Below, piece by piece: positions 1 to 20,600 of a stretch of DNA of 64,000 nucleotides. A model generated the notes under the pieces. That model ran no database searches. It saw nothing but the letters and a program-made list of their open reading frames with translations, and was not told the origin of the DNA. A program made the translations under genes and the position numbers. The stretch is from NCBI RefSeq assembly GCF_056746865.1, contig NZ_JBWKMP010000003.1. The stretch is one strand, 5' to 3'. The DNA is from a plasmid. Every line of letters starts with the position of its first letter. The first letter of the stretch is position 1.

Positions 1-9
1 ATCGGCGGA

Positions 10-1524
10 GTGTCATTTGATGGCAGCGCCAATATCGACCTGCCTGGCGTGAATAAAACGGGTAATCAGAGCACTACCGGCAATGCTGCAACCGCAACGA
101 AACTTCAGACGGCAAGAACAATCGGCGGGGTGGCATTTGATGGCACTGCCAATATCAACCTGCCGGGTGTGAACATTGCTGGTAACCAGAACACAACAGG
201 TAATGCTGCAACCGCTACAAAACTGCAAACAGCCCGCACAATCAACGGTGTTAAGTTTGATGGTTCTGCGAACATTTCGATACCAACAATTACGTCCAGA
301 GGGCGTGTTACTGCGCTCACCAGTACAACGCAAGGTGCTACTACTGGATTGCAGATGTATGAGGCGTACAACAACGGCTATCCTTCTGCTTACGGGAATG
401 TGCTTCATCTTAAGGGCGCAGCTGCCGCTGGTGAAGGCGAGTTGTTCATAGGTTGGAGCGGTACAAGTGGTGCTCATGCGCCTGTACATGTACGTTCACG
501 ACGAGATGCTGATACAGCCAGTTGGTCTGAGTGGGCGCAGGTCTACACATCGAAAGATTCCATCCCTGGTGTAAATACCACGGGCAACCAGAACACAACT
601 GGGAACGCGGCGTCTGCAACGAAATTACTAACGGCAAGAACTATTGGTGGTGTTTCATTTAATGGCACCGCAAATATCGACCTGCCGGGCGTGAATAAAA
701 CAGGTAATCAGAGCACTACCGGCAATGCTGCAACTGCAACGAAACTTCAGACGGCACGCACAATCGGCGGGGTTTCGTTTGATGGTACAGCAAACATCAA
801 TCTTCCGGGCGTTAATATTGCCGGAAATCAAAATACAAGTGGTAATGCAGCTACAGCGACAAAGTTAAAAACTGCCAGAAAAATAAGTGGAGTGGCTTTT
901 GATGGTTCTGCAGACATCAGATTAACGGCAAGTCATGTTGGTGCGTTACCAACAACAGGTGGTACTGTTACCGGTGAAATTATATCCAGCAGCCAAAATG
1001 CTATACGCCTAACTTATAATAATAACTATGGATTCCTAATAACTAATACTGGATATAGTTTCCAGATATCAACCACTGGGCAAAATGTTAATGGTGATGT
1101 CGTTTACACTCCATTAAAGATAGATGGCGGTGATGGTCGCGTAGAATTAGGACGTGCTGATGGTCATGTAAGGGTTATGGGGAATTTATCTGCCGCTGGT
1201 CAGATTACCCCTGGTAACTATAGTAATTTCAACACGAAATATCAGGCTAAAAACACAGCATATGCCAACATTCATGGATGGCATAAGGATACATCAACTA
1301 AGGTGATGATGCAGTGGGGGTTTATAACAAATTTAACTCCAGGAAGCGTGGTTAAATTTCCGACTGCTTTTCCTGAGGCGTGTGCGGTAGTTGTGATTTC
1401 GCCTCACAGCGGGAATGCTGTCAATTCAATTCTTTATACATACAACCACTCAGCCACTGGTTTTACAGTGAAAAGTAGCTCCACTGATAAAATATATGCA
1501 CAGTATGTTGCTTATGGGTATTAA
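10..1524 (+). CDS. Tail fibre protein, C-terminal portion (5' end lies outside the window)
   Basis: ORF open from the window edge; tandem Gly/Asn/Thr-rich repeats (GVNxxGNQxTTGNAATATKLxTARTIxGVxFDGxANIxLP) typical of enterobacterial phage side tail fibres; immediately followed by a Tfa gene. Confidence 0.8.
   Translation: MSFDGSANIDLPGVNKTGNQSTTGNAATATKLQTARTIGGVAFDGTANINLPGVNIAGNQNTTGNAATATKLQTARTINGVKFDGSANISIPTITSRGRVTALTSTTQGATTGLQMYEAYNNGYPSAYGNVLHLKGAAAAGEGELFIGWSGTSGAHAPVHVRSRRDADTASWSEWAQVYTSKDSIPGVNTTGNQNTTGNAASATKLLTARTIGGVSFNGTANIDLPGVNKTGNQSTTGNAATATKLQTARTIGGVSFDGTANINLPGVNIAGNQNTSGNAATATKLKTARKISGVAFDGSADIRLTASHVGALPTTGGTVTGEIISSSQNAIRLTYNNNYGFLITNTGYSFQISTTGQNVNGDVVYTPLKIDGGDGRVELGRADGHVRVMGNLSAAGQITPGNYSNFNTKYQAKNTAYANIHGWHKDTSTKVMMQWGFITNLTPGSVVKFPTAFPEACAVVVISPHSGNAVNSILYTYNHSATGFTVKSSSTDKIYAQYVAYGY
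19..890 (+). repeat. Internal direct repeats in the tail fibre gene (about 230 bp at 19-250 and 661-890, each made of ~38-codon sub-repeats)
   Basis: Near-identical DNA and protein blocks read directly at both positions. Confidence 0.8.
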
Positions 1525-1555
1525 AAATATAGTTAATTAGAATGAAGGTGCTTAA

Positions 1556-1978
1556 ATGGCAAAGTATTACAGCAAAGAGACTGGTGGTTTCTACGACGAC
1601 AGACTAAAAGAAGATTACGATAAAAACGGTTCATGGCCGTCCGATACTGTACATATACCTGATGACTTATATGATGAATTGTTATCAGGGTATGGCAATG
1701 GGAAAATAATAATTGCAAATGGCGATGGTTATCCAATGTTATCTGACCCACAACCTATGAGCTTAGAGGATAGAGTCAGCATTGCTGAAAACACCAAAAG
1801 TAGTCTTATGAATGATGTGAGCATAAAAATATCAACGCTTCAGGATGCTGTTGATATGGATATTGCCACTGATGAGGAAATAGAAATGTTGACAAAGTTA
1901 AAGAGGTATAGAGTTCTTCTTAATAGAGTTGACACTTCTGTTGATGCAGATATCTCATGGCCTGAGATGCCTGTATAA
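1556..1978 (+). CDS. tfa: Tail fibre assembly protein (Tfa chaperone)
   Basis: C-terminus LQDAVDMDIATDEEIEMLTKLKRYRVLLNRVDTSVDADISWPEMPV matches the conserved lambda Tfa C-terminal motif as I recall it; RBS-like aaggtg upstream; sits directly after the fibre gene. Confidence 0.85.
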   Translation: MAKYYSKETGGFYDDRLKEDYDKNGSWPSDTVHIPDDLYDELLSGYGNGKIIIANGDGYPMLSDPQPMSLEDRVSIAENTKSSLMNDVSIKISTLQDAVDMDIATDEEIEMLTKLKRYRVLLNRVDTSVDADISWPEMPV

Positions 1979-2020
1979 ACAATCATAACAATCCAATCAG
2001 CACTGCTTTTTTGATATTTC

Positions 2021-2047
2021 AAGCCCTCTTTTGTTGAGGGCTTTATT
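2021..2047 (+). terminator. Rho-independent terminator-like hairpin after tfa
   Basis: aagccctc-ttttgtt-gagggctt followed by tatt. Confidence 0.5.
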
Positions 2048-2438
2048 AGTGAGTGCTTTTGTGACCTTTTTTAGTAATACAATCCTTTGGTACAAAAAAG
2101 CCGCCGTCCAGTCAATGACGGCGGGCAAAATGAACACTCAGTTAGTTGTATCTGAGAGGGGGGCATTATATTCACTGAATGACGCTTGTGAAGACTCACA
2201 TGTCATCATTTTGTCCTCAAGAATCAGCTCACATCTTGCGCATTCAAGCGTATTTCTCTTTAAAGCCGTGTTTGGACCATTTTGTTGATACGCGAATTTG
2301 GCATCCTCCACGCTCTGAGTGACGAGGTTTACGGACCACCGGGCCATCATATGCATCCATTTTGTGTGAATGGCATTTAGTCGGGAAATAACAAACTGGA
2401 TAAGTTGAAGCCGCGTTAAACGTCATTTCTGGAGGGGT

Positions 2439-2765
2439 ATGTTTGCAGATTATGAAAATCTGGCTGTAGCAGTCATAACATCCCTGCTGAGTGGAACCGG
2501 CGTATTCCTTCTCGGAGTTAGAGACGGGCGCATTTCTGCGTCACTGCTCAACCTCGCGAGTGAATTGTTTACTGCAGTAACTGCCGGGCTTGCGGGGTTT
2601 TGGGTGGCTGATAGCTATGAATGGCCGGAAGGCATCATTTACTGCGTTGTTCTGATTGCCAGTAACAACGGAAGTGAAATTTTACAGGGCTTGAAGTCCA
2701 GAGCTAGTAACGTCTTGAATCTCTTAAGCGTAATAGCGAGTGGGGGAAAAGGTGGAGAGAAGTAA
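2439..2765 (+). CDS. Small three-TM membrane protein, putative holin (LydA position)
   Basis: 108 aa with three hydrophobic segments; RBS ggagg; first gene of an operon that continues into a DarA-sized gene. Confidence 0.4.
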   Translation: MFADYENLAVAVITSLLSGTGVFLLGVRDGRISASLLNLASELFTAVTAGLAGFWVADSYEWPEGIIYCVVLIASNNGSEILQGLKSRASNVLNLLSVIASGGKGGEK

Positions 2766-3211
2766 TGGGTGACTTTGGAAATTATTTCATTTTTATCATG
2801 GCATTTGTTGCCGTTATTGACCGTTTCTTATTTCGTCGCAAGAGTGTTGATATTTTGAGCATTGGCGAAGCTGTAGTGAAAGAGTCTGCTATAGCGTTTC
2901 CCGTGTCGCTTCGCGTTAAGCGAAGCTGGGTAAGCAATGCACAAATCGAATATTGGTTGCAGGACTTGAAAAATCCATCTGTGGTTATTTCGGGGAAAAC
3001 AAGACCAGTTGACGCATCAAAACGCGGTGAGAGAGAAGAATATTTGCTCATCGACACGAAATATCTTGAGCCAGCGAAGTGGGATCTAAAGGTCACATTG
3101 ACTAACGGTAATTGCCGCCTGAATCCGCTTTATCGCATTTTCCCTATCAATGACTGCATAGAACGTCAGTTTATGATTGAAAAGTGTGAAGGAGACTGGA
3201 ATGTCAAATAA
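2765..3211 (+). CDS. Hypothetical protein (LydB position, possible antiholin)
   Basis: 148 aa, start coupled to the preceding gene, RBS ggtggagag; function inferred only from position. Confidence 0.3.
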   Translation: MGDFGNYFIFIMAFVAVIDRFLFRRKSVDILSIGEAVVKESAIAFPVSLRVKRSWVSNAQIEYWLQDLKNPSVVISGKTRPVDASKRGEREEYLLIDTKYLEPAKWDLKVTLTNGNCRLNPLYRIFPINDCIERQFMIEKCEGDWNVK

Positions 3212-3818
3212 ATCTAATTATGTTCTTCTTAATTATGATGAGTTAAACGAAAAGGGGCTGGCAAAACTCGTCAAAGAAATCGGTAAAGGAGGCTACAAGA
3301 TAGCGAGGGTGATCCCCGCCAGTAATGGCAGGAAGAAAGACGGGATCATGACGCGCACGTTTACCCTTATCGGAATCGATGAGCAGACGATGGACGTTCA
3401 GGTTAATGATACTGGTGATATTTCTGGTGTAAAACTGAACGGAAAAATTGTTCCTTTCAAGCCAGTTAAAACGCTGATGGCTTTAGGGCAATCACTGGCT
3501 GCTTTATTTAATAAAGGCGCATCATCATTTCAGAAATCATTGGCGCGTAAGTTAGCTCGTGCGGCGAAAGATATTGATGATGGGAATAAGAAAATAAAAG
3601 GCGTTAAGTCCAATGCGCAGAAACTAGCAGAGGCAAAGGAATCTCGCGATGCGATCCGCGAGGATATTGAAAGGGCCAAAGAAAAATTAAATCAGGTGCA
3701 AGGTAATTCAGACCGCGCAACAAGAGAAACTGAAATCATTAGAACCGAGATGGCGCAGGAACTGGCGAAAACTCGCGTATTGAAAGAAGAAATAGCGCGC
3801 CTGGAGGAAGATGCATGA
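3201..3818 (+). CDS. Hypothetical coiled-coil protein (Hdf position in a dar-like operon)
   Basis: ATG at 3201 preceded by aaggagac; charged coiled-coil C-terminus; ORF-track start at 3177 is probably an over-extension. Confidence 0.4.
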   Translation: MSNKSNYVLLNYDELNEKGLAKLVKEIGKGGYKIARVIPASNGRKKDGIMTRTFTLIGIDEQTMDVQVNDTGDISGVKLNGKIVPFKPVKTLMALGQSLAALFNKGASSFQKSLARKLARAAKDIDDGNKKIKGVKSNAQKLAEAKESRDAIREDIERAKEKLNQVQGNSDRATRETEIIRTEMAQELAKTRVLKEEIARLEEDA

Positions 3819-5740
3819 TAAAGAAACCTATTCGAATAAATATCCAGTCCACTTTTGCAGATACGCTCACTGGATATACGCCTAATCGTTGGGTGGCGGA
3901 AGATATCACCGAGGATGATTTACTTATCGAGCCTGCGACGCTGGAAGATATCGAGCTGGCCTATATGGGCAACGAAATTTTGGTAACTACCAATGAGGCA
4001 ATGTTCGAAGCTTTAACCACAACAAAATTGCGGTTAGCGCAAACAATGCGAGCATTTGTCCGGGCGCTTAATCGCGGCCTGAATGGCACTGACATTGCTG
4101 CGGGTACGGATGAGGCAGGTGAATATGAAGACGGACGTAATAGTATCGGTGGGGCAATCATTGGGCGCGTGCGCCGGGTTGCTAATATCCCTGTTGTAAC
4201 AGCACAAATACCTCTAACCGATGGACAAACGACAAGCATAATTTTCCATTCTCCAACCGCAGACGGCACAAGAATTAAAGGGGATGACGAGCTGGTTGCG
4301 TTTCAGTTTCTTCTTAACAAAAGAAACGTTACGCATGTTGTTGCGCCAATCGGTGGGCGTGATGTATCTCTGAGCCAGGTGTGTCAGGCGCTTTCTAACC
4401 TCATTGAGCGTAACAGTGCAAAATTCAAAAAAGCAAAGGAGCGCCAGGACAAAATGAAGGCTGATATTGAGGGGTATCTCAATGAAGCCGACAAGCTGGC
4501 AGAAGAACGTTCTGTGCTGATTGAGCAGGTTGAAGACGCACAGCGGGGGCTGGCAGAGAAACGCTCAACACTCAATGATATGCAGAATAAATTAGACGCA
4601 CAAAAAGCCCTTAACGGGGAATTGCAGGCTAAGCGCGATAATTTATTGTCAGCTAAGAGCCAAGGAACTAAAGAGCGTGCCTTCAATGATCAACTGCGAC
4701 ACATAAAACATAATCTTGCTACAGAAGGCCAAACAACGCTGGATAATGGTGCTGTAGTTAAGTATGTCACGTCAGGCAGTGATAGCTTTGTCACGATTGA
4801 GGCACCAGAAGGCAATTTCAGTATTGATGTCAGTGCTGTTAAAGGTGGGAGTTCAGCGGACGCTGCAACCAAATTACTTAAAGCCTATCGTGAACATAAT
4901 GCTGATCAATACAAAGTGGATGTGTTGCCGGGCCAGCCTGAGCCAACTGATCAGCCGCAGCCTGAACAGGAGCCACAACCAGCATCACATCCTGATCCCC
5001 TGGAGGTTGGTAAATATCGCTATGCGCTACAATCTCGCCCGGCGGGTGTTGGTGCGGTTCCTGAAGGAAATAAAGCTGTACTTGACCGTCCTGATCAGGC
5101 TGATCCGTATTACGAATATGCTCGTCACGGAATCATTACGTATGACCGCAAACTGACAGACGAAGAAGTCAGTCAGTACGAATTACGCTATCTGCCTGAT
5201 GACGATGAACTGAGAGGGATGGCGAACGAGCTGGTTGCGTCCAGCATGGTAAAACATATTGATGGCTATGTAGATCTGTTTGGAAGTGACCTGAAAACAT
5301 TCAAGGCGCAAGTTAAAATTCTTTTCCGCAAAGCGTTCCCGAACGTGGCATATCCACTTGGTGATGGGGAGAACCTTTTCATTATGGACGTGTATAACGC
5401 CCTTCAAAATCATTCAAGCGAAGTAAAAACAGATCCTGTAGTTGAGCCAGAATCGCAACCTGCACCAGCACCAGAACAGGAGCCGGAGCCAGAAGAAGCG
5501 GGTGAATCAGCAAGCGAAGCTGACCAGGAAGCAGATAAAGCGCTTGAGTACCTGAAATCCGTTCCGGAGCAGTTCACATCCCGCGATCTGACGGTCATAA
5601 GTGCTGAACTTGATCATGTGCAGGAAGCTGCAAACGCTCTTATCAGTGCTGGTCGATATGACGAGAACGAAGCAACTGTAGGTGCAGCCGTTGACTACCT
5701 GATCAATATTCTGGCTGAAATTCAGCAGGGAGGTGCTTAA
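3815..5740 (+). CDS. DarA-like candidate (large head-associated protein with coiled-coil and Pro/Glu-rich linkers)
   Basis: 641 aa, close to my recollection of the size of P1 DarA; operon context lyd-like, this gene, small gene; two PEPxxQP-type linkers. Assignment is from size and position, not alignment. Confidence 0.35.
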   Translation: MIKKPIRINIQSTFADTLTGYTPNRWVAEDITEDDLLIEPATLEDIELAYMGNEILVTTNEAMFEALTTTKLRLAQTMRAFVRALNRGLNGTDIAAGTDEAGEYEDGRNSIGGAIIGRVRRVANIPVVTAQIPLTDGQTTSIIFHSPTADGTRIKGDDELVAFQFLLNKRNVTHVVAPIGGRDVSLSQVCQALSNLIERNSAKFKKAKERQDKMKADIEGYLNEADKLAEERSVLIEQVEDAQRGLAEKRSTLNDMQNKLDAQKALNGELQAKRDNLLSAKSQGTKERAFNDQLRHIKHNLATEGQTTLDNGAVVKYVTSGSDSFVTIEAPEGNFSIDVSAVKGGSSADAATKLLKAYREHNADQYKVDVLPGQPEPTDQPQPEQEPQPASHPDPLEVGKYRYALQSRPAGVGAVPEGNKAVLDRPDQADPYYEYARHGIITYDRKLTDEEVSQYELRYLPDDDELRGMANELVASSMVKHIDGYVDLFGSDLKTFKAQVKILFRKAFPNVAYPLGDGENLFIMDVYNALQNHSSEVKTDPVVEPESQPAPAPEQEPEPEEAGESASEADQEADKALEYLKSVPEQFTSRDLTVISAELDHVQEAANALISAGRYDENEATVGAAVDYLINILAEIQQGGA

Positions 5741-8575: not shown

Positions 8576-10261
8576 ATGGCAACGAAAGACAAAAACAAGG
8601 GCTTTCTGTCGGCATTGAAGAAAGCCTTCAGCGGTGGTGATGTTACGCCTGCCGATCCGGTCGTATTTGCGAGCGGGCATAGCGTCGTTGCTCGTTCTGG
8701 CCTGTCCGCCTTGCGTCCTGGCATCCTGGGGAGCAATAGCGATGGCATGACAAGCGCGGCGGATACTGTATCTATATCGGCAGAATTACCGAGTGACCGC
8801 CTGCAAAAATACAACATACTGGAGACGATGGCGAAAAGTCCGACTATCTCCACAGCATTAAACATTCACATTGCGCATTCTCTGGCTCCATCAAAAAAAA
8901 CAGGCCTCGCATTTATTCTCTCTCCGAAAAATGGGGCGGATAAGGAGGCTGTAAGTCGATGTGAGGAATTGACCGCTGATTTAAGCTCAATGATTAATGA
9001 TGGCCTGCCATCGTGGGCCATGATCATGGCTATTTTCGGTGTGTCGTATATCCGTCCATATGCAGAGCAAGGGAAGGGGATAACTGGAATTGAGTCGAGC
9101 TATTACACGCTCCCTCATTTCGTTCAGGAGTTTTATCGCGGTAGCCAACTTGTCGGATTCAGCGGTGATTATATTCTGGATACGCATACTTTGCGCAGAG
9201 TTATAACCGAACCGTGGAATCTGGTTTCCATGAAAAACCCGTACTGGACGCCTCAGCATAAAGTAATGCCAGTAACTTACGGCACTAAAGGCTATTCCTT
9301 GCTTAGTGAACAGCAGGACAAGCCGTTAATGGAGACGCAGAACTACGGTACGTCGTTTCTTGAATACAGTTATGAACCCTACCTGAATTTATGTGCCGCG
9401 CTTGCTGCGCTGAAAGCAACGCGAAACAACGCTGCAAAAATTGATCGCCTGATTGCACTCACAACGAACACGATAGATCCGGTAAACGCGGCGAATTATA
9501 CGCGCGGGGTCAGCCAGGCACTGAAGCGTCATAGCGACCTCGTAGCGCAACGGTCGATTAATTCTAATGCTCTCCCATCTGTACTTAACCATCTGATACC
9601 CGTCATGGGGGATGGGAAGAACGGGATCACCATTGATACGCAATCTATACCCGCAGATATCAGTGGTATCGAAGACGTTATGTTTCATCTCCGACAGCTC
9701 GCGGCAAGCCTCGGTATTGACGCAACAATGCTTGGCTGGGCTGATCAGATGAGTGGTGGACTTGGAGAAGGCGGTTGGCAGCAAACAGCTATCCAGGCCG
9801 CCTTACGCGCGAACTGGATCAGACAGGCCGCCCAGCGGACTATTTATCGGCTTCATGACATTCACCTCGCTTATAAATACGGGAAGGTTTACACCGAAAA
9901 AAACCGTCCTTATGACGTGCAATTCAACTCAATGAACACAGCTATCCAGGAAGAGGAAAACCGAGAGCTGGATGCGCGCGCCAACTTCGTAGCTGTCATC
10001 TCGCAAATAATGGACCAGATCCAGAACAACCCGAAACTGGCGGGTAGCGACGCGTTTATGCGTTATCTGTTCACCGAACAGCTTCGTATCGACGATGACA
10101 CTCTCAACGTAATGATCCAAGAGTTTAAGGCGAATGAATCAGAGCAAAACAACGAGCATGGTATGTACGAATCCGCGCCGTTGTCGTCCGGTGACGATCC
10201 GGAAAACTGGACGCAAGAACAATTAATCAACTTTGCAAAATTTGTGATGAGCAATAATTAA
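8576..10261 (+). CDS. Putative portal protein (Prt-like)
   Basis: 561 aa ORF immediately upstream of a protease/scaffold-like gene; assignment by size and synteny only. Confidence 0.4.
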   Translation: MATKDKNKGFLSALKKAFSGGDVTPADPVVFASGHSVVARSGLSALRPGILGSNSDGMTSAADTVSISAELPSDRLQKYNILETMAKSPTISTALNIHIAHSLAPSKKTGLAFILSPKNGADKEAVSRCEELTADLSSMINDGLPSWAMIMAIFGVSYIRPYAEQGKGITGIESSYYTLPHFVQEFYRGSQLVGFSGDYILDTHTLRRVITEPWNLVSMKNPYWTPQHKVMPVTYGTKGYSLLSEQQDKPLMETQNYGTSFLEYSYEPYLNLCAALAALKATRNNAAKIDRLIALTTNTIDPVNAANYTRGVSQALKRHSDLVAQRSINSNALPSVLNHLIPVMGDGKNGITIDTQSIPADISGIEDVMFHLRQLAASLGIDATMLGWADQMSGGLGEGGWQQTAIQAALRANWIRQAAQRTIYRLHDIHLAYKYGKVYTEKNRPYDVQFNSMNTAIQEEENRELDARANFVAVISQIMDQIQNNPKLAGSDAFMRYLFTEQLRIDDDTLNVMIQEFKANESEQNNEHGMYESAPLSSGDDPENWTQEQLINFAKFVMSNN

Positions 10262-14633: not shown

Positions 14634-17600
14634 TTGAGGGGGCTTCCTTTGGACAAAATAATTGATTCAATTAGCCAGGCCACCAGCATTGGGGCGCTGA
14701 TTGAAATTGTTAGTCGGTTGCATAAACCGCGAGCTGTAGTGACCTTTGGCGTTAAGAAAGTCGATGGCGTCAGTATTCAGAAAACACGCCGGACAGCAAA
14801 CAACGCCGCAGTAGATCTTCTTAATTCCCTTCCGCCCGGCTTCGATGGAGCGAAATTAACTGACGAACAGCGTCAGATTCTTGCCGGGTATACCGGTGAA
14901 GGCGGCCTGACAGATGGTGAGGGCAGCCAATACGAATACTATACGCCACAGTTTATGGCAGAAGGTATATGGGATCTCTTCGGCGACTACGGTATTGATA
15001 GCGGTCACGTACTGGAACCGTCAGCAGGCACAGGTATTTTCCAGGAGACAAAACGGCAGGGCATGATAATGACCAGCGCCGAACTGTCTCCGATCTCCGG
15101 TCGAATAAACCAGCTTTTGCACCCGGAAGATGATGTGAATATCGGGGCGTTTGAGGCGCTGGCGGCGAAAGATGCAATGTATGACCACGCAGTTGGTAAC
15201 GTACCGTTTGGCGAAGGGCGTTCCGGCGTCGCCGGGCTTGATCCGGCATATGCAAACGAGAAGAACGTTGGCAATTATTTTGTGCTGCGCACGATCGACA
15301 AGGTTAAGCCTGGTGGGCTAATTGTATTGGTGGTGCCGAATGGCATGACCGATGGTACGAAATACAAAAAATTGCGCGATAAAGTCAGCCGTAAAGCGGA
15401 ATTTTTGGGCGCGCATCGTATGCCTTCTGGTACGTTCAGCGAATCCGGTACAGATACCGTGGTGGACGTATGGGTATTGCGTAAACACCCGGAAACCTTC
15501 CTGGAGATGATCCCCGACACGGATGATGCAACGCTCAAATCGGCAAACGTCCTTTGGGATACCTTCCTCAAAGGGAAATGGTTTACAACCGAAGGGAAGC
15601 GATTTGTTTACGGCGACATGGAACGCACCAGCTTCCGCAATACCCTGGTGGTGAAAAAGGACGGTCGTGTATCCAATGAGTCGATGAAAACCGCGTTATC
15701 ACGCCGCTTTGAAAGCCGTATTAATTGGGATTTGCTCGGAGTAACTACCCAGGCATGGCAGGGCGCAAAAGTAGGGGATAAGCGTCTTGTAGGCGGTATC
15801 TGGCATGAGTTTGATGGCCTGAAATGGGTTAAGGACACGACAACCAAATCCTCCGCGCTTGATGTAAGTCGATATGGTGTTTCGACGTTTGGCGATCTGC
15901 AGATCGCGTTCCAGTCAACAAACGGGATTCTGGCTTTGTCATGGGACCAGATATCGGCGATCGCGTCCGACTATCCATCGGTTGTCAGTGATGAAGTGGC
16001 AGCAATGATTCGCTTTGCTGGCAAACAGCGAGAAAAAGACAGGGAGCGCGTTATGCGCGGTGCGTTGATAGGGCAGTTGATCAACAAGGCACTTGATTTG
16101 CGTAACCTGGGGGTGAACGTTGATGACAAACTGGCAGATGCATCCCGCCTGGCGGCAGCAGAAGTTGCGAAGTATGGACCACCGCACGCGATTAAGCTGA
16201 ATGGGCTTGCTGAAGCTGGCGCTAAAAACTGGATGACGTTCACTGGCAATGTGAAACAGGATGGTTCCACTTCTGACCTTCTGGCAGGGCGACTTGATGT
16301 AACGGATGGTGCTGCCGGTATTGACTTTACACGTCCGGAACAAGTGATAGCACATCTTTTCAGTGATGTAGCCCTTAATCCTATAACGCTGGGCGACTTT
16401 CGTGAGGCGTTTGCTGGTGAACTGCCAGAGGACGACGACGCGGCCCTTGAATACCTGGCGAAATTTGATGATATCGCTATTGATGGGTATGGCTGCCTGC
16501 TGCCGATGGACCGCGCCACCAGCGGCGATATTGTAACCAAAACAGCATTGCTGGTGGGCTGGCGTGATGCATCAACAGGTGAGCAGAAAGCGAACTTTGA
16601 GCGTCAGTTGGCGAAAATCGAAGAGAAACGCATTTTCACGCCACTAAATAAAGTCACCGTTAATCTGAACGCCCGCTGGCTGGATCGCCGCTTGATAAAA
16701 GAGTTCCTGGCAGAGCAGGGCTATGACGAGTTTAAGTACACTGAACCTGATCTGAAGGTCGTCGATGGCATTCTGGTATCTCCGGACGATTACGAAGGTA
16801 AGGACGGGGTATTTACCGGCTATCAGCTACGAACCGTAAACGGCAAAAACGGGAATGAGTTCAAGAAGGCCAACAATAAAGACGGCTTCCTGAACCAGTT
16901 AGAAAACTACCTGAACGGTGTTAAACCGCGTGGGCAGAACGCTAACGAGTACCTGGATAAAATTGCTCAACTGGAAGTTAGCTTTAACGACTGGTTACGC
17001 ACCCACCCGCAGGCGGATCAGATAGCCCGTGACTATAACGACGCATTCAATGGCTTCATTCCGTTCACGCACTCTAACGCACCGCTTGGCCTGGAAGGGA
17101 TTAGTGGAAAGCGCATTCCTCTGACTTATCAGAATGAAGAAGTTCGTCGCTTGTCAGAAGATGGGCGCGGCATCATGGGATTTGGTACCGGGCTGGGTAA
17201 AACCACGACCGCGCTTGCGCTTGAGGCGTATAACTTCGAAACAGGTCGTACTAAACGCACGTGTATTGTTGTTCCGAAGGCGGTTTATCAGAACTGGTAT
17301 CACGAGGCACAGAGCTTCTACAGTGCTGATGCCTTCGCCAATATGATGTTTATCGGTCTGGATGAAGTTCGTGATGACAGCGGAAATATTCTGACCGCTC
17401 CGGTGCTTGATGAAAATGGCGAACCCCGCCTCGACAGTAACGGGCAGCCTCTTACCAGAAATGTTGTGAAAGAGTCCGCCAGCGCCGTTATCGTTCAGCG
17501 CATGAACATGATCCCGTCGTCAAATTGGCGAACGGTCATCATGACAAAAGAACAATTCGCGTCTATCCCGCTACGAGAAAAAACCATCGAGGAGAACTCA

Positions 17601-20600
17601 CAGCAAGCTGTCTTTAATGCTGTGGAAATGGGGCGTCTTGACCTGGCGTCTGGTAAACACCGTGATGCGCAGAAGAAGAACAAGATTAAGGATCAGGCCG
17701 CGAATACCGGTACAACGAAGAAGCAGAATATCCCGTACTTTGAGGATATGAACTTCGATAGCGTGATAGCCGACGAGGGGCATAACTACCGCAACTCCTT
17801 TAATGCCGGGCGTGAAGCGGGACAACTGGCATATTTGCCTAACCCGGCAGTATCCAAGATGGCCCGCGACATGGCTGTAAAAGCTGCGTACATGATGAAA
17901 CGCAACAACGGGCGTGGTGTAGTCATGCTGACGGCAACACCGCTGGTGAACAGTCCGATTGATGCCTTCAACATGCTGTCTACTGTCATTCCGCAGGAAG
18001 AGTGGATGCGCATGGGCATCATTACGCCTGATGATTTCGTTCGTGTGTTTGGTAAAACAGCCACAGTTCAGGTCCAGAAAATTTCCGGGGAAGTGGAAGA
18101 GAAGCAGGGGCTGGTTGGCTTCCAGAACCTTGATGGCCTGCGTGGTATTTTCCATCGCTGGACTACTCTGAAGACTGCTGCGGACGTCGGGGCGACGGTT
18201 AAAATCCCTGATATTGTCGAGAATACCTTGCAGATCCCGATGACAGGGGAGCAGGAGGCTGCTTATGAAGAGCTTCGTAAGCGTGCACAGGAGTTAAGTA
18301 GTAAAGATGCGCTGACGGTTGATGAAAACGGGCATATCACAAACGAAAAACCGGATGATTTCATCTTCTCCATCATCCGCGACATGGATAAGGTTGCTAT
18401 AGATCCGGATCTGTATGCCAGTGCGATTACATTCCAGTTCCCCGTTGAGCTTGCAGACAAGGTAAAAGCTATTGCTGATGCCCTGCCAAAAGTAGCTGGC
18501 GGTAAAGTGGCAGATGATGCAGACGAGGCCGAAGAAGACGGCGCTGGTGGGCTGGTTAGTACGCGCACCAGTAAGGTAGTGAAGACCACCTTTAGTGAAC
18601 ATCCGGCGCATGTTGAAATACGTGCCAGCATTGAACTGGAAGCTGAAATACTGAAGGCCATTGCTGCCGCCGGGATTGATATGCAGCAGGTATCACACCC
18701 AATCCCGCCGAAGTATGCCGCGCTGATCGAAAACCTTCGTGAAGGTCTGAAGAACGGTAAACAAATTGTCTTCATTGATGAAAAAGCCCAGCACCAGAAG
18801 CTGCGCCGTATTATCGCCAGTGCACTGCAAATGCCGGAGCAGGAGATAGGCATTATCAATGCGACGACCGTTAGCCAGGCTGGCGGCATCAAGCTGAAGA
18901 AGGTGAATAAGCCGACTGAACCTACTCCGAATAAAAACGGTGAATACAAAGAAGGGGCATGGGAAACCTACTACAGCAAACTTGCCCAATATGAGGATTA
19001 TCTCTCAGCTAAAAATGATGCTGGCCTTGAGGGTATGGAAGGCATTGCCGCCGACTATAACGAAGGGCGCACGCGCATAATTATCTGTAACAAGAAGGCT
19101 GAAGTAGGTATTAACCTGCATATCGGGACAACCGATATCCACCACCTGACACTACCCTGGACACCAGCCAGTATCGACCAACGAAATGGGCGCGGTGCGC
19201 GCGTAGGTTCACCGCAAGAGAAGGTCAATGTTCACTACTATTGTGGCAAAGGCACATTCGACGACTTCCGTCTGGATACGCTGAAACGTAAGAAAGACTG
19301 GATCAAGATGGTAATGACCTCCGACATGTCAGAGATCGCCAATGGTGATGCGGATGATGCTGATGAACGCGCCATTATGCTGGCGGCAAACCCGGAAGAA
19401 CGCCGCGCAATCATGGCTCGCCAGGCGCAAGAGCGTGAAGAACGTCTGAAACTGAAAGCACAGCGCGAGGCCAACAATGCTCTCGATATCTACCTGAAAG
19501 CGGCAAACGCCGCTGGAAAAGATATCGGCATGATGGAGACAGAACTGAAAAGCGCGATGGAACAGATAGAGTATTACCAGCGAAATCTTGACGACCTGAT
19601 AAAAGCGGGTACGAACAGGAATGGGCAAAAATTCGCGCTTGAGCAGTTGAGTAGCTACAGAAAACGTGCGCGGGTGCTGCGGTTTGCGATCACCAGGGCA
19701 AAAGACGCGGATACCATAATGAAACGCTCTCGTGGTGATGTGGAGCGCGCTATTAAGTCTGGTGTGCTGGATATCAGTATCGATGTTATTCAGAACCCAC
19801 AGGAATATATGCGCACTGACAAGAATATCCTGTTGCATAAAGGTAGTTATTACCGTGCAGTCATTGATGATCGCGAAACAACAGCGATTGTCCGGGTGGA
19901 AAAAATTGACGGTGAAAAAGCACAATACCTCTGCCGTATCGCCTGGCTGGATAGAGCAAGTCGTTACGCTCGATCACCGGGGTCAATCGTTACATTGCCG
20001 TTTGACTCTGTGATTGAAGCGGTAACTTTTGAAGAGGGGGTAGCTGAATCGCGCGCAACGGCTGCGCGTGGTGTTCAGTGCCACCAGCTATCAACAATAC
20101 TTACTCGCGATCAGTTCTATGATGCTATTCGCAATGGGGTAATGAATGTTATTGCTGGTAAACCTGGTAATGCATGGGGCGGTGGGTCAGCTATTAAATA
20201 CTGGGCATATCGCACAGATGATGGTCAGATCGCGCTGTCATCGGCCTATGATGGCGTGATAGGCCAAAAAATCGGGCGAGCATCGGATATAGCACCTGAA
20301 CGATGGATATATCCAGATGGCAACGATGAGGCGCTGAAGCGTGAAGTGGCAAAAATACAAGCCAGTGATAACCCGCTGAATATCGTGGACGGCGAGGGAT
20401 TCCTCCAGGCATTGTATGGGTATGATTACATCCAGGGAATGCAGGCATGGGGCGCACAGGCAACGATGGATGATGTTGTCCAGGAGTTCGAAAACTGGAT
20501 GGCTGGGCGTGGTCTGTCAGGTCGTTCGCTTAATAAAGTCACTTCTGAAGATATTCTTAGCTTGTTCCGCAAACCGTCCGGAGAAGGTCTGGAATCATTC

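Follow-up and report, generated by a model that had tools for sequence, protein, structure and literature searches.

The DNA analysed here, a stretch of 64,000 nucleotides from a plasmid (the window), starts within a tail-fibre gene. Translation in frame 1 is free of stops over 507 codons from the first position, and this open frame (1-1524, plus strand; 507 codons and the stop) represents the 3′ part of the gene, a homologue of P1 gene S whose 5′ part lies outside the window, beyond its left edge. The frame matches tail-fibre PHROGs with E values down to 3e-183, and its C-terminal end corresponds to the Pfam domain Gp53-like_C (PF21882). It is directly followed by a gene for a tail-fibre assembly chaperone of the P1 U or lambda Tfa type (1556-1978, plus strand), which matches Caudo_TAP (PF02413, E = 1.8e-34) and phrog_188, and ORFs further downstream in the window contain LydB and DarA_N/DarA_C domains. 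The first 2 kb of the window are 96-98% identical to ~90-kb E. coli plasmids, and the open frame shows the same degree of identity (96-98%) to the annotated 1169-aa fibre genes of these plasmids, which lie after baseplate genes and before tfa, DarA and portal genes; in syntenic ~90-kb plasmids the annotation includes DarA, portal and baseplate J genes. In one relative (L010), the 3′ end of the fibre gene shares 1521 of the 1524 nucleotides of the window frame (99.8%). The window itself begins inside the gene, and the DNA upstream was read in relatives. In those that are 96-99.8% identical over window positions 1-1524/2000, genes with PF26903 and PF26881 precede the fibre gene, and in three relatives homologues of P1 gp16 and P1 R were found upstream of it. 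The gene order in relatives up to 99.8% identical is thus gp16-R-S-U, as in P1, and the fibre gene shares its place in the P1 backbone, which runs gp16-R-fibre-Caudo_TAP and then LydB and DarA (the upstream genes being taken from relatives). The tail-fibre identity given in the initial annotation is therefore borne out by the PHROG and Gp53-like_C matches, the chaperone neighbour and the P1 order of the relatives. Because of these matches, the downstream genes and the upstream gp16 and R of the relatives, the gene can be assigned to a P1-like phage-plasmid as its homologue of gene S, and the element as a whole is an E. coli phage-plasmid of the P1-like kind, ~90 kb in size.

Most of the visible gene is built from repeats. 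A direct-repeat search aligned 1-275 with 643-917 over 275 nt at 81% identity and detected a third, shifted copy at 523-797 with 69% identity to 1-275. When positions 1-300, containing the first block, were compared by blastn with the whole 64-kb window, the 643-917 copy was recovered at E = 6e-71 and no match was found beyond 1-917. The long direct repeats that the initial annotation reported in the fibre gene are confirmed and lie far beyond chance. Its details required correction: the repeat region, placed at 19-890, occupies 1-933 and is open at the left edge, and the sub-repeat, estimated at ~38 codons, measures 120 nt, that is 40 codons. The 120-nt period was also found by TRF at 1-263 (1.9-2.1 copies, 76-81% matches). 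The consensus of the unit is IGGVSFDGSANIxLPGVNxxGNQxTTGNAATATKLQTART (40 residues).

All features of the array lie on the plus strand. Unit a (A1, 1-120; IGGVSFDGSANIDLPGVNKTGNQSTTGNAATATKLQTART) is followed by unit b (A2, 121-240; IGGVAFDGTANINLPGVNIAGNQNTTGNAATATKLQTART) and by a cassette of 134 codons (241-642), after which come unit a′ (B1, 643-762), unit b′ (B2, 763-882) and a terminal half unit (883-933; ISGVAFDGSADIRLTAS) that leads into the C-terminal tip region (934-1524). The tip resembles the Mu tail-fibre S and carries the Gp53-like_C domain at aa 435-507. The cassette opens with an N-terminal half unit (241-285; INGVKFDGSANISIP) and closes with a C-terminal unit part (562-642; IPGVNTTGNQNTTGNAASATKLLTART). 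Between them, and setting the two repeat blocks apart, lies a globular, non-repeat domain of ~92 codons (286-561), which occurs as a single copy in the window and is classed as a knob-like or beta-prism domain from its AF2 model and fold matches. With K standing for this knob cassette, the visible architecture is ab[K]ab. Position 1 of the window is the first codon of a unit and the array continues past the left edge, so the window shows only part of the unit count of the genome.

The units differ in how closely they resemble each other. Identity between a and a′ (1-120 and 643-762) is 90% in DNA and 95% in protein, whereas b and b′ are 90% identical in protein and 74% in DNA; a and b share 79% of their DNA. 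The description of the blocks as near-identical thus holds for a/a′ and fails for b/b′. Among the 50 codons that differ between the blocks, 37 differences are synonymous and 13 non-synonymous, which indicates that conservation between the blocks is mainly at the protein level. Exact in-register runs reach 32 and 21 nt between A1 and B1, and 14 nt at most in every other pair of window units. Since only the A1/B1 pair has exact runs of at least 20 nt, the visible part of the array is a modest substrate for recombination. Going by these runs, it would mainly permit deletion or duplication of a 642-nt block; single-unit changes would depend on identical tandem units, located upstream of the window if present.

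The cassette consists of the first 15 residues of a unit, the 92-residue domain and the last 27 residues of a unit, and by tblastn the segment 241-642 aligns end to end with two units, with the knob as an insertion. The core of the AF2 model of the knob, a monomer prediction, has a pLDDT of 93-97. On this model the domain is predicted to have an antiparallel beta-sheet fold that superposes on known knob domains (PDB 6CL6/6CU2, 6EU4, 5M9F and 5EFV). The best fold matches were the C-terminal region of T4 gp34, the AS12 gp42 tailspike, the R2 pyocin fibre and the Mu fibre S, and staphylococcal phage receptor-binding proteins were also among the matches. The knob-like domains listed in a study of R-type pyocin fibres (PMC6116203) are the same set of structures as those matched by the window knob. 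The knob was found in 900 representative clusters. The 40-aa unit is common in the fibres of unrelated phages, with 92 phage records from many genera, among them P1, P7, D6, SSU5, 9g, Goslar, T4-like Acinetobacter phages and cyanophages.

Scans of the 40-aa unit and the knob domain against Pfam-A and NCBIfam matched no model, and searches of the repeat and knob region against PDB sequences (phmmer and profile) gave no significant match. The result of the Pfam-A and NCBIfam scans accounts for the vague names that PGAP gives to the fibre protein, 'beta strand repeat-containing protein' or 'gp53-like domain-containing protein'. PF03406 (Phage_fiber_2, 'phage tail fibre repeat') was considered as the repeat family and rejected, as window aa 1-320 gave no match at E up to 10. 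A full-length relative gave a weak match (E 0.003, 17.4 bits against a cut-off of 22 bits) at residues 174-198, a region well separated from the array of 40-aa units. PF03406 likewise describes a phage-fibre repeat of ~40 residues, yet it is a different repeat. For the unit itself, an AF2 model of two units had a low pLDDT (59) and places a helix at GNAATATKLQ; the unit may adopt the alpha-beta repeat fold of gp34 or a triple beta-helix. A two-unit profile matched the C-terminal stalk of the phage L Dec protein weakly in the PDB (E 0.67). The Dec stalk (PDB 6e3c chain C, residues 88-130) carries the unit motif NAETADKLSTARTI...SFDGSANV at weak significance, and the head-decoration PHROG phrog_3018 also matched the fibre; from these sequence likenesses, the motif may be a general element of trimeric stalks.

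The next line of evidence came from the comparison of the repeat number among relatives, which were drawn from a search with a full-length fibre; this yielded numerous E. coli proteins encoded by contigs of ~90 kb. Close relatives were defined by an identity of at least 98% over the N-terminal 440 aa and of at least 93% over the 194-aa tip. Within this group, proteins of 835, 875, 915 and 995 aa carry no knob (architectures b, ab, aab and aaaab), proteins of 1009, 1049, 1089, 1129, 1169 and 1209 aa carry one (b[K]b, b[K]ab, ab[K]ab, aab[K]ab, abab[K]ab and aaaab[K]ab) and a protein of 1383 aa carries two (aab[K]aab[K]ab). Length thus changes in steps of whole 40-aa units or whole blocks, and the repeat number, which the initial annotation had proposed to compare among related phages, is not invariant. 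A total of 19 lengths and 26 architectures was found among 54 full-length proteins that share the N-terminal anchor and the tip, with lengths in relatives ranging from 835 to 1406 aa. The commonest lengths were 1089 and 1129 aa, with 12 representatives each. The receptor-binding C-terminal tip is the same whatever the length class. Proteins whose flanks match exactly fall into as many as five length classes (for example 915/995/1089/1129/1209 aa), which indicates that changes in unit number come faster than even one substitution in the ~750 flanking residues. One example is provided by NZ_CP098907 (89,005 bp) and NZ_CP098883 (89,123 bp), from isolates whose strain names run in parallel and that share host, source and country; their fibre genes have identical flanks and differ by one unit. 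A literature search of incomplete coverage did not find a description of copy-number polymorphism of the 40-aa repeat in P1-like plasmids.

Several of these alleles have the structure expected from unequal recombination. The 875-aa allele of the complete plasmid pMUB-MIN14-1 is 882 nt shorter than the 1169-aa allele, and the junction of the deletion, where the register switches, falls within the a/a′ unit. The 1383-aa allele of L010 contains a perfect 762-nt tandem duplication of a-b-knob-a′, in which the paired units are 100% identical; it represents the reciprocal outcome of an a′ x a exchange. Relatives therefore contain the two products, deletion and duplication, predicted for unequal recombination between a and a′, in agreement with the earlier proposal that the repeats can drive recombinational expansion and contraction of the fibre. 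In the 995- and 1209-aa alleles, consecutive 'a' units have 98-100% DNA identity and, judged by their sequence, are recent expansions. The most unstable part of the array, made of identical tandem 'a' units, would lie upstream of the window.

Taken together, these data are best accounted for by a model in which the tail fibre of a P1-like phage-plasmid has a modular shaft, encoded by the repeats. On this model the shaft is a string of 40-residue units, one of which is split into its two halves by a globular knob-like domain. The similarity of the units extends to their DNA, so that they could misalign, and misaligned homologous recombination or replication slippage would add or remove whole units, always in frame. 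An exchange between a in the first block and a′ in the second would delete or duplicate the whole segment that carries the knob, and the outcome would be fibres that differ in length and knob number and keep the same tip. The repeat anatomy and the recombination-driven length polymorphism are put forward with high confidence. Of the two possible pathways, either RecA-type unequal exchange or slippage could have generated the alleles, and each unit would be expected to add a fixed length to the trimeric shaft.

What the variation does for the phage is another matter. The periodic fold of the fibre might on its own explain the repeats, with copy-number differences being neutral and having no effect on adsorption or host range, and this explanation has a substantial chance of being right, somewhat below an even one. 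The excess of synonymous changes described above (37 against 13) points to selection on the protein repeat and not on DNA identity, the tip is constant across the length classes, and the dominance of the 1089- and 1129-aa forms (12 representatives each) may mean that a certain length is preferred and that the others scatter neutrally about it. Contrary to this, fibres of 835 to 1406 aa with 0, 1 or 2 knobs persist in complete plasmids, and knob-like domains occur in saccharide-binding fibres and have been implicated in that binding (PMC6116203). A further argument comes from T4 gp37, where, according to the account of Tetart et al. (1996, 1998) given in PMC3157838, recombination at conserved motifs of the fibre gene duplicates or swaps segments, and such duplications expand the host range (Tetart et al., 1996, as cited there). 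The parallel is partial, as the events in gp37 take place at short motifs in the receptor-binding tip, whereas those described here concern 120-nt units of the shaft and leave the tip unchanged. An effect of length variation on host range is possible but rather doubtful; if there is one, it would stem from the reach of the fibre or the number of knobs and not from an altered tip.

A more technical explanation is that the polymorphism arises from collapse or mis-joining of repeats in short-read assemblies and that the true locus is stable. Stretches made up of 100%-identical 120-nt units extend over 360-480 nt, beyond typical short reads, and the window begins exactly at a unit boundary, like a contig broken in a repeat. 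Miscounting in such long identical runs may inflate the scatter in length. As an explanation of the whole polymorphism it is nonetheless very improbable, given that length variants (875, 1169, 1303 and 1343 aa) are present in plasmids that RefSeq classes as 'complete genome' and that identical full-length proteins of one length class recur in up to 20 independently assembled contigs. A perfect 762-nt duplication and additional cassettes are unlike the products of a collapse, and the alleles differ in the order of their units (abab, aab or aaaab) and not in number alone. The third explanation, that a dedicated enzyme programmes the variation through a shufflon with a Cin-type invertase or a diversity-generating retroelement, is extremely unlikely, for although P1 itself has a cin/C-segment system (PMC6799933) and one relative, L009 (CP159120), carries a recombinase-family gene together with an alternative fibre tip and chaperone on the opposite strand, tblastn with the L009 recombinase found no match in the 64-kb window, inverted repeats are absent from window positions 1-3000, inversion swaps tips and leaves the number of direct repeats unchanged, and the variants observed are in-register deletions and duplications of direct repeats.

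Recombination between shaft repeats, as favoured here, places the fibre among known systems with which it shares some features and not others. In P1, S is the host-specificity fibre (PMC9024508), and unit and knob sequences 70-90% identical to those of the window occur in the fibres of P1, P7 and D6. The 40-aa units are more numerous in the window fibre, whereas P1 S gave one or two partial matches, and the tip is of the Gp53-like_C type in the former and of the Sv/Sv′ type in the latter. Furthermore, P1 possesses an invertible C segment with cin, while neither cin nor an alternative Sv′/U′ was found in the window (tblastn, and repeat search of 1-3000). A close architectural parallel to the unit-and-knob shaft is provided by T4 gp34, a triple beta-helix punctuated by beta-prism domains and containing repeats of 33-47 aa with a loop of variable length (PMC5537660), although searches against the PDB (phmmer and profile) detected no sequence similarity to T4 gp34/gp12. 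According to the pyocin study, fibre repeats allow length adjustment, and the tandem knobs of R-type pyocins arose by duplication (PMC6116203). Change of fibre length through repeats is an ordinary and well-known mode of tail-fibre evolution; textbooks of phage biology cover fibre repeats, their role in adjusting length and recombination at conserved motifs, principles of which the allelic series in P1-like elements is a new example.

In some relatives (L003, which is NZ_CP098907, and the proteins P0004, P0006, P0024, P0044, P0079 and P0081), the shaft contains extra cassettes of 254, 256 or 277 aa. Like the knob cassette, these open with the first half of a unit and close with the second half, and they contain a tip-type segment resembling Mu S and an annotated PF21446 domain. 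Their order with respect to the knob varies between alleles (ab[K][256]b, a[256][K]ab and ab[K]a[256]b), which suggests that the 40-aa unit behaves as a connector for the shuffling of whole modules. A bolder extension of this idea, that the unit is a connector whose halves flank interchangeable globular cassettes and that the shaft constitutes a combinatorial host-recognition array, is speculative and, in our judgement, unlikely. Under such an arrangement, recombination at the unit DNA would yield fibres with varied reach and with a varied number and order of putative sugar-binding modules, fibre change would outpace point mutation, and the fibre could be tuned, for example, to the depth of the O-antigen or capsule.

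P1-like phage-plasmids, which E. coli commonly harbours, carry resistance genes, and the fibre decides which cells are entered. The alleles described here form a natural series with identical ends, with 1 to 5 consecutive shaft units before the knob cassette (or before the tip in the knob-less forms) and 0 to 2 knobs, and they offer a ready-made set for relating fibre length and knob number to adsorption. If the units do serve as connectors, the shaft would by itself amount to a combinatorial host-recognition array that evolves rapidly. The connector-like unit could also guide the engineering of chimeric fibres. A practical implication is that the fibre gene is easily mis-assembled. The window starts at a unit boundary, and at least one related record, NZ_CP173569.1, begins inside the array, at query position 650, which suggests that assemblies tend to break or to be linearised there.

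The presence of an invertible segment also varies within the group, since it is found in L009 (NZ_CP159120.1) and not in the window. In L009, a Cin-like recombinase-family gene accompanies an inverted alternative fibre end, annotated as 'pyocin knob domain-containing protein', and a second chaperone gene. The segment is flanked by 438-nt inverted repeats (4206-4643 and 9175-9612; 92% complementary), which include repeat-unit DNA. The window and most relatives are without this segment and diverge from L009 ~240 nt past the chaperone gene. A relic of cix or U′ after the chaperone gene (1978-2440) was considered and discarded, the alignment being a simple intergenic divergence from L009.

Some additional observations concern the genes downstream of the fibre. 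A 641-aa ORF that raised the suspicion of a lambda-like packaging module turned out to be the DarA homologue (3815-5740, plus strand). A second large ORF of 2283 aa (14634-21485, plus strand) contains an SNF2-related domain, and its size is in the range of P1 DarB; this ORF and the DarA homologue indicate that the window carries the P1 anti-restriction (Dar) head-protein module. In relatives, a HicAB toxin-antitoxin pair adjoins the portal gene. Finally, the interval that separates the chaperone gene from the lysis genes contains a minus-strand ORF of 72 codons (2138-2356), with a strong promoter-like site (11/12) inside the ORF at 2192-2165 and a terminator-like hairpin just downstream at 2124-2101, and in one relative (L011) a 70-aa gene has been called at the matching place.
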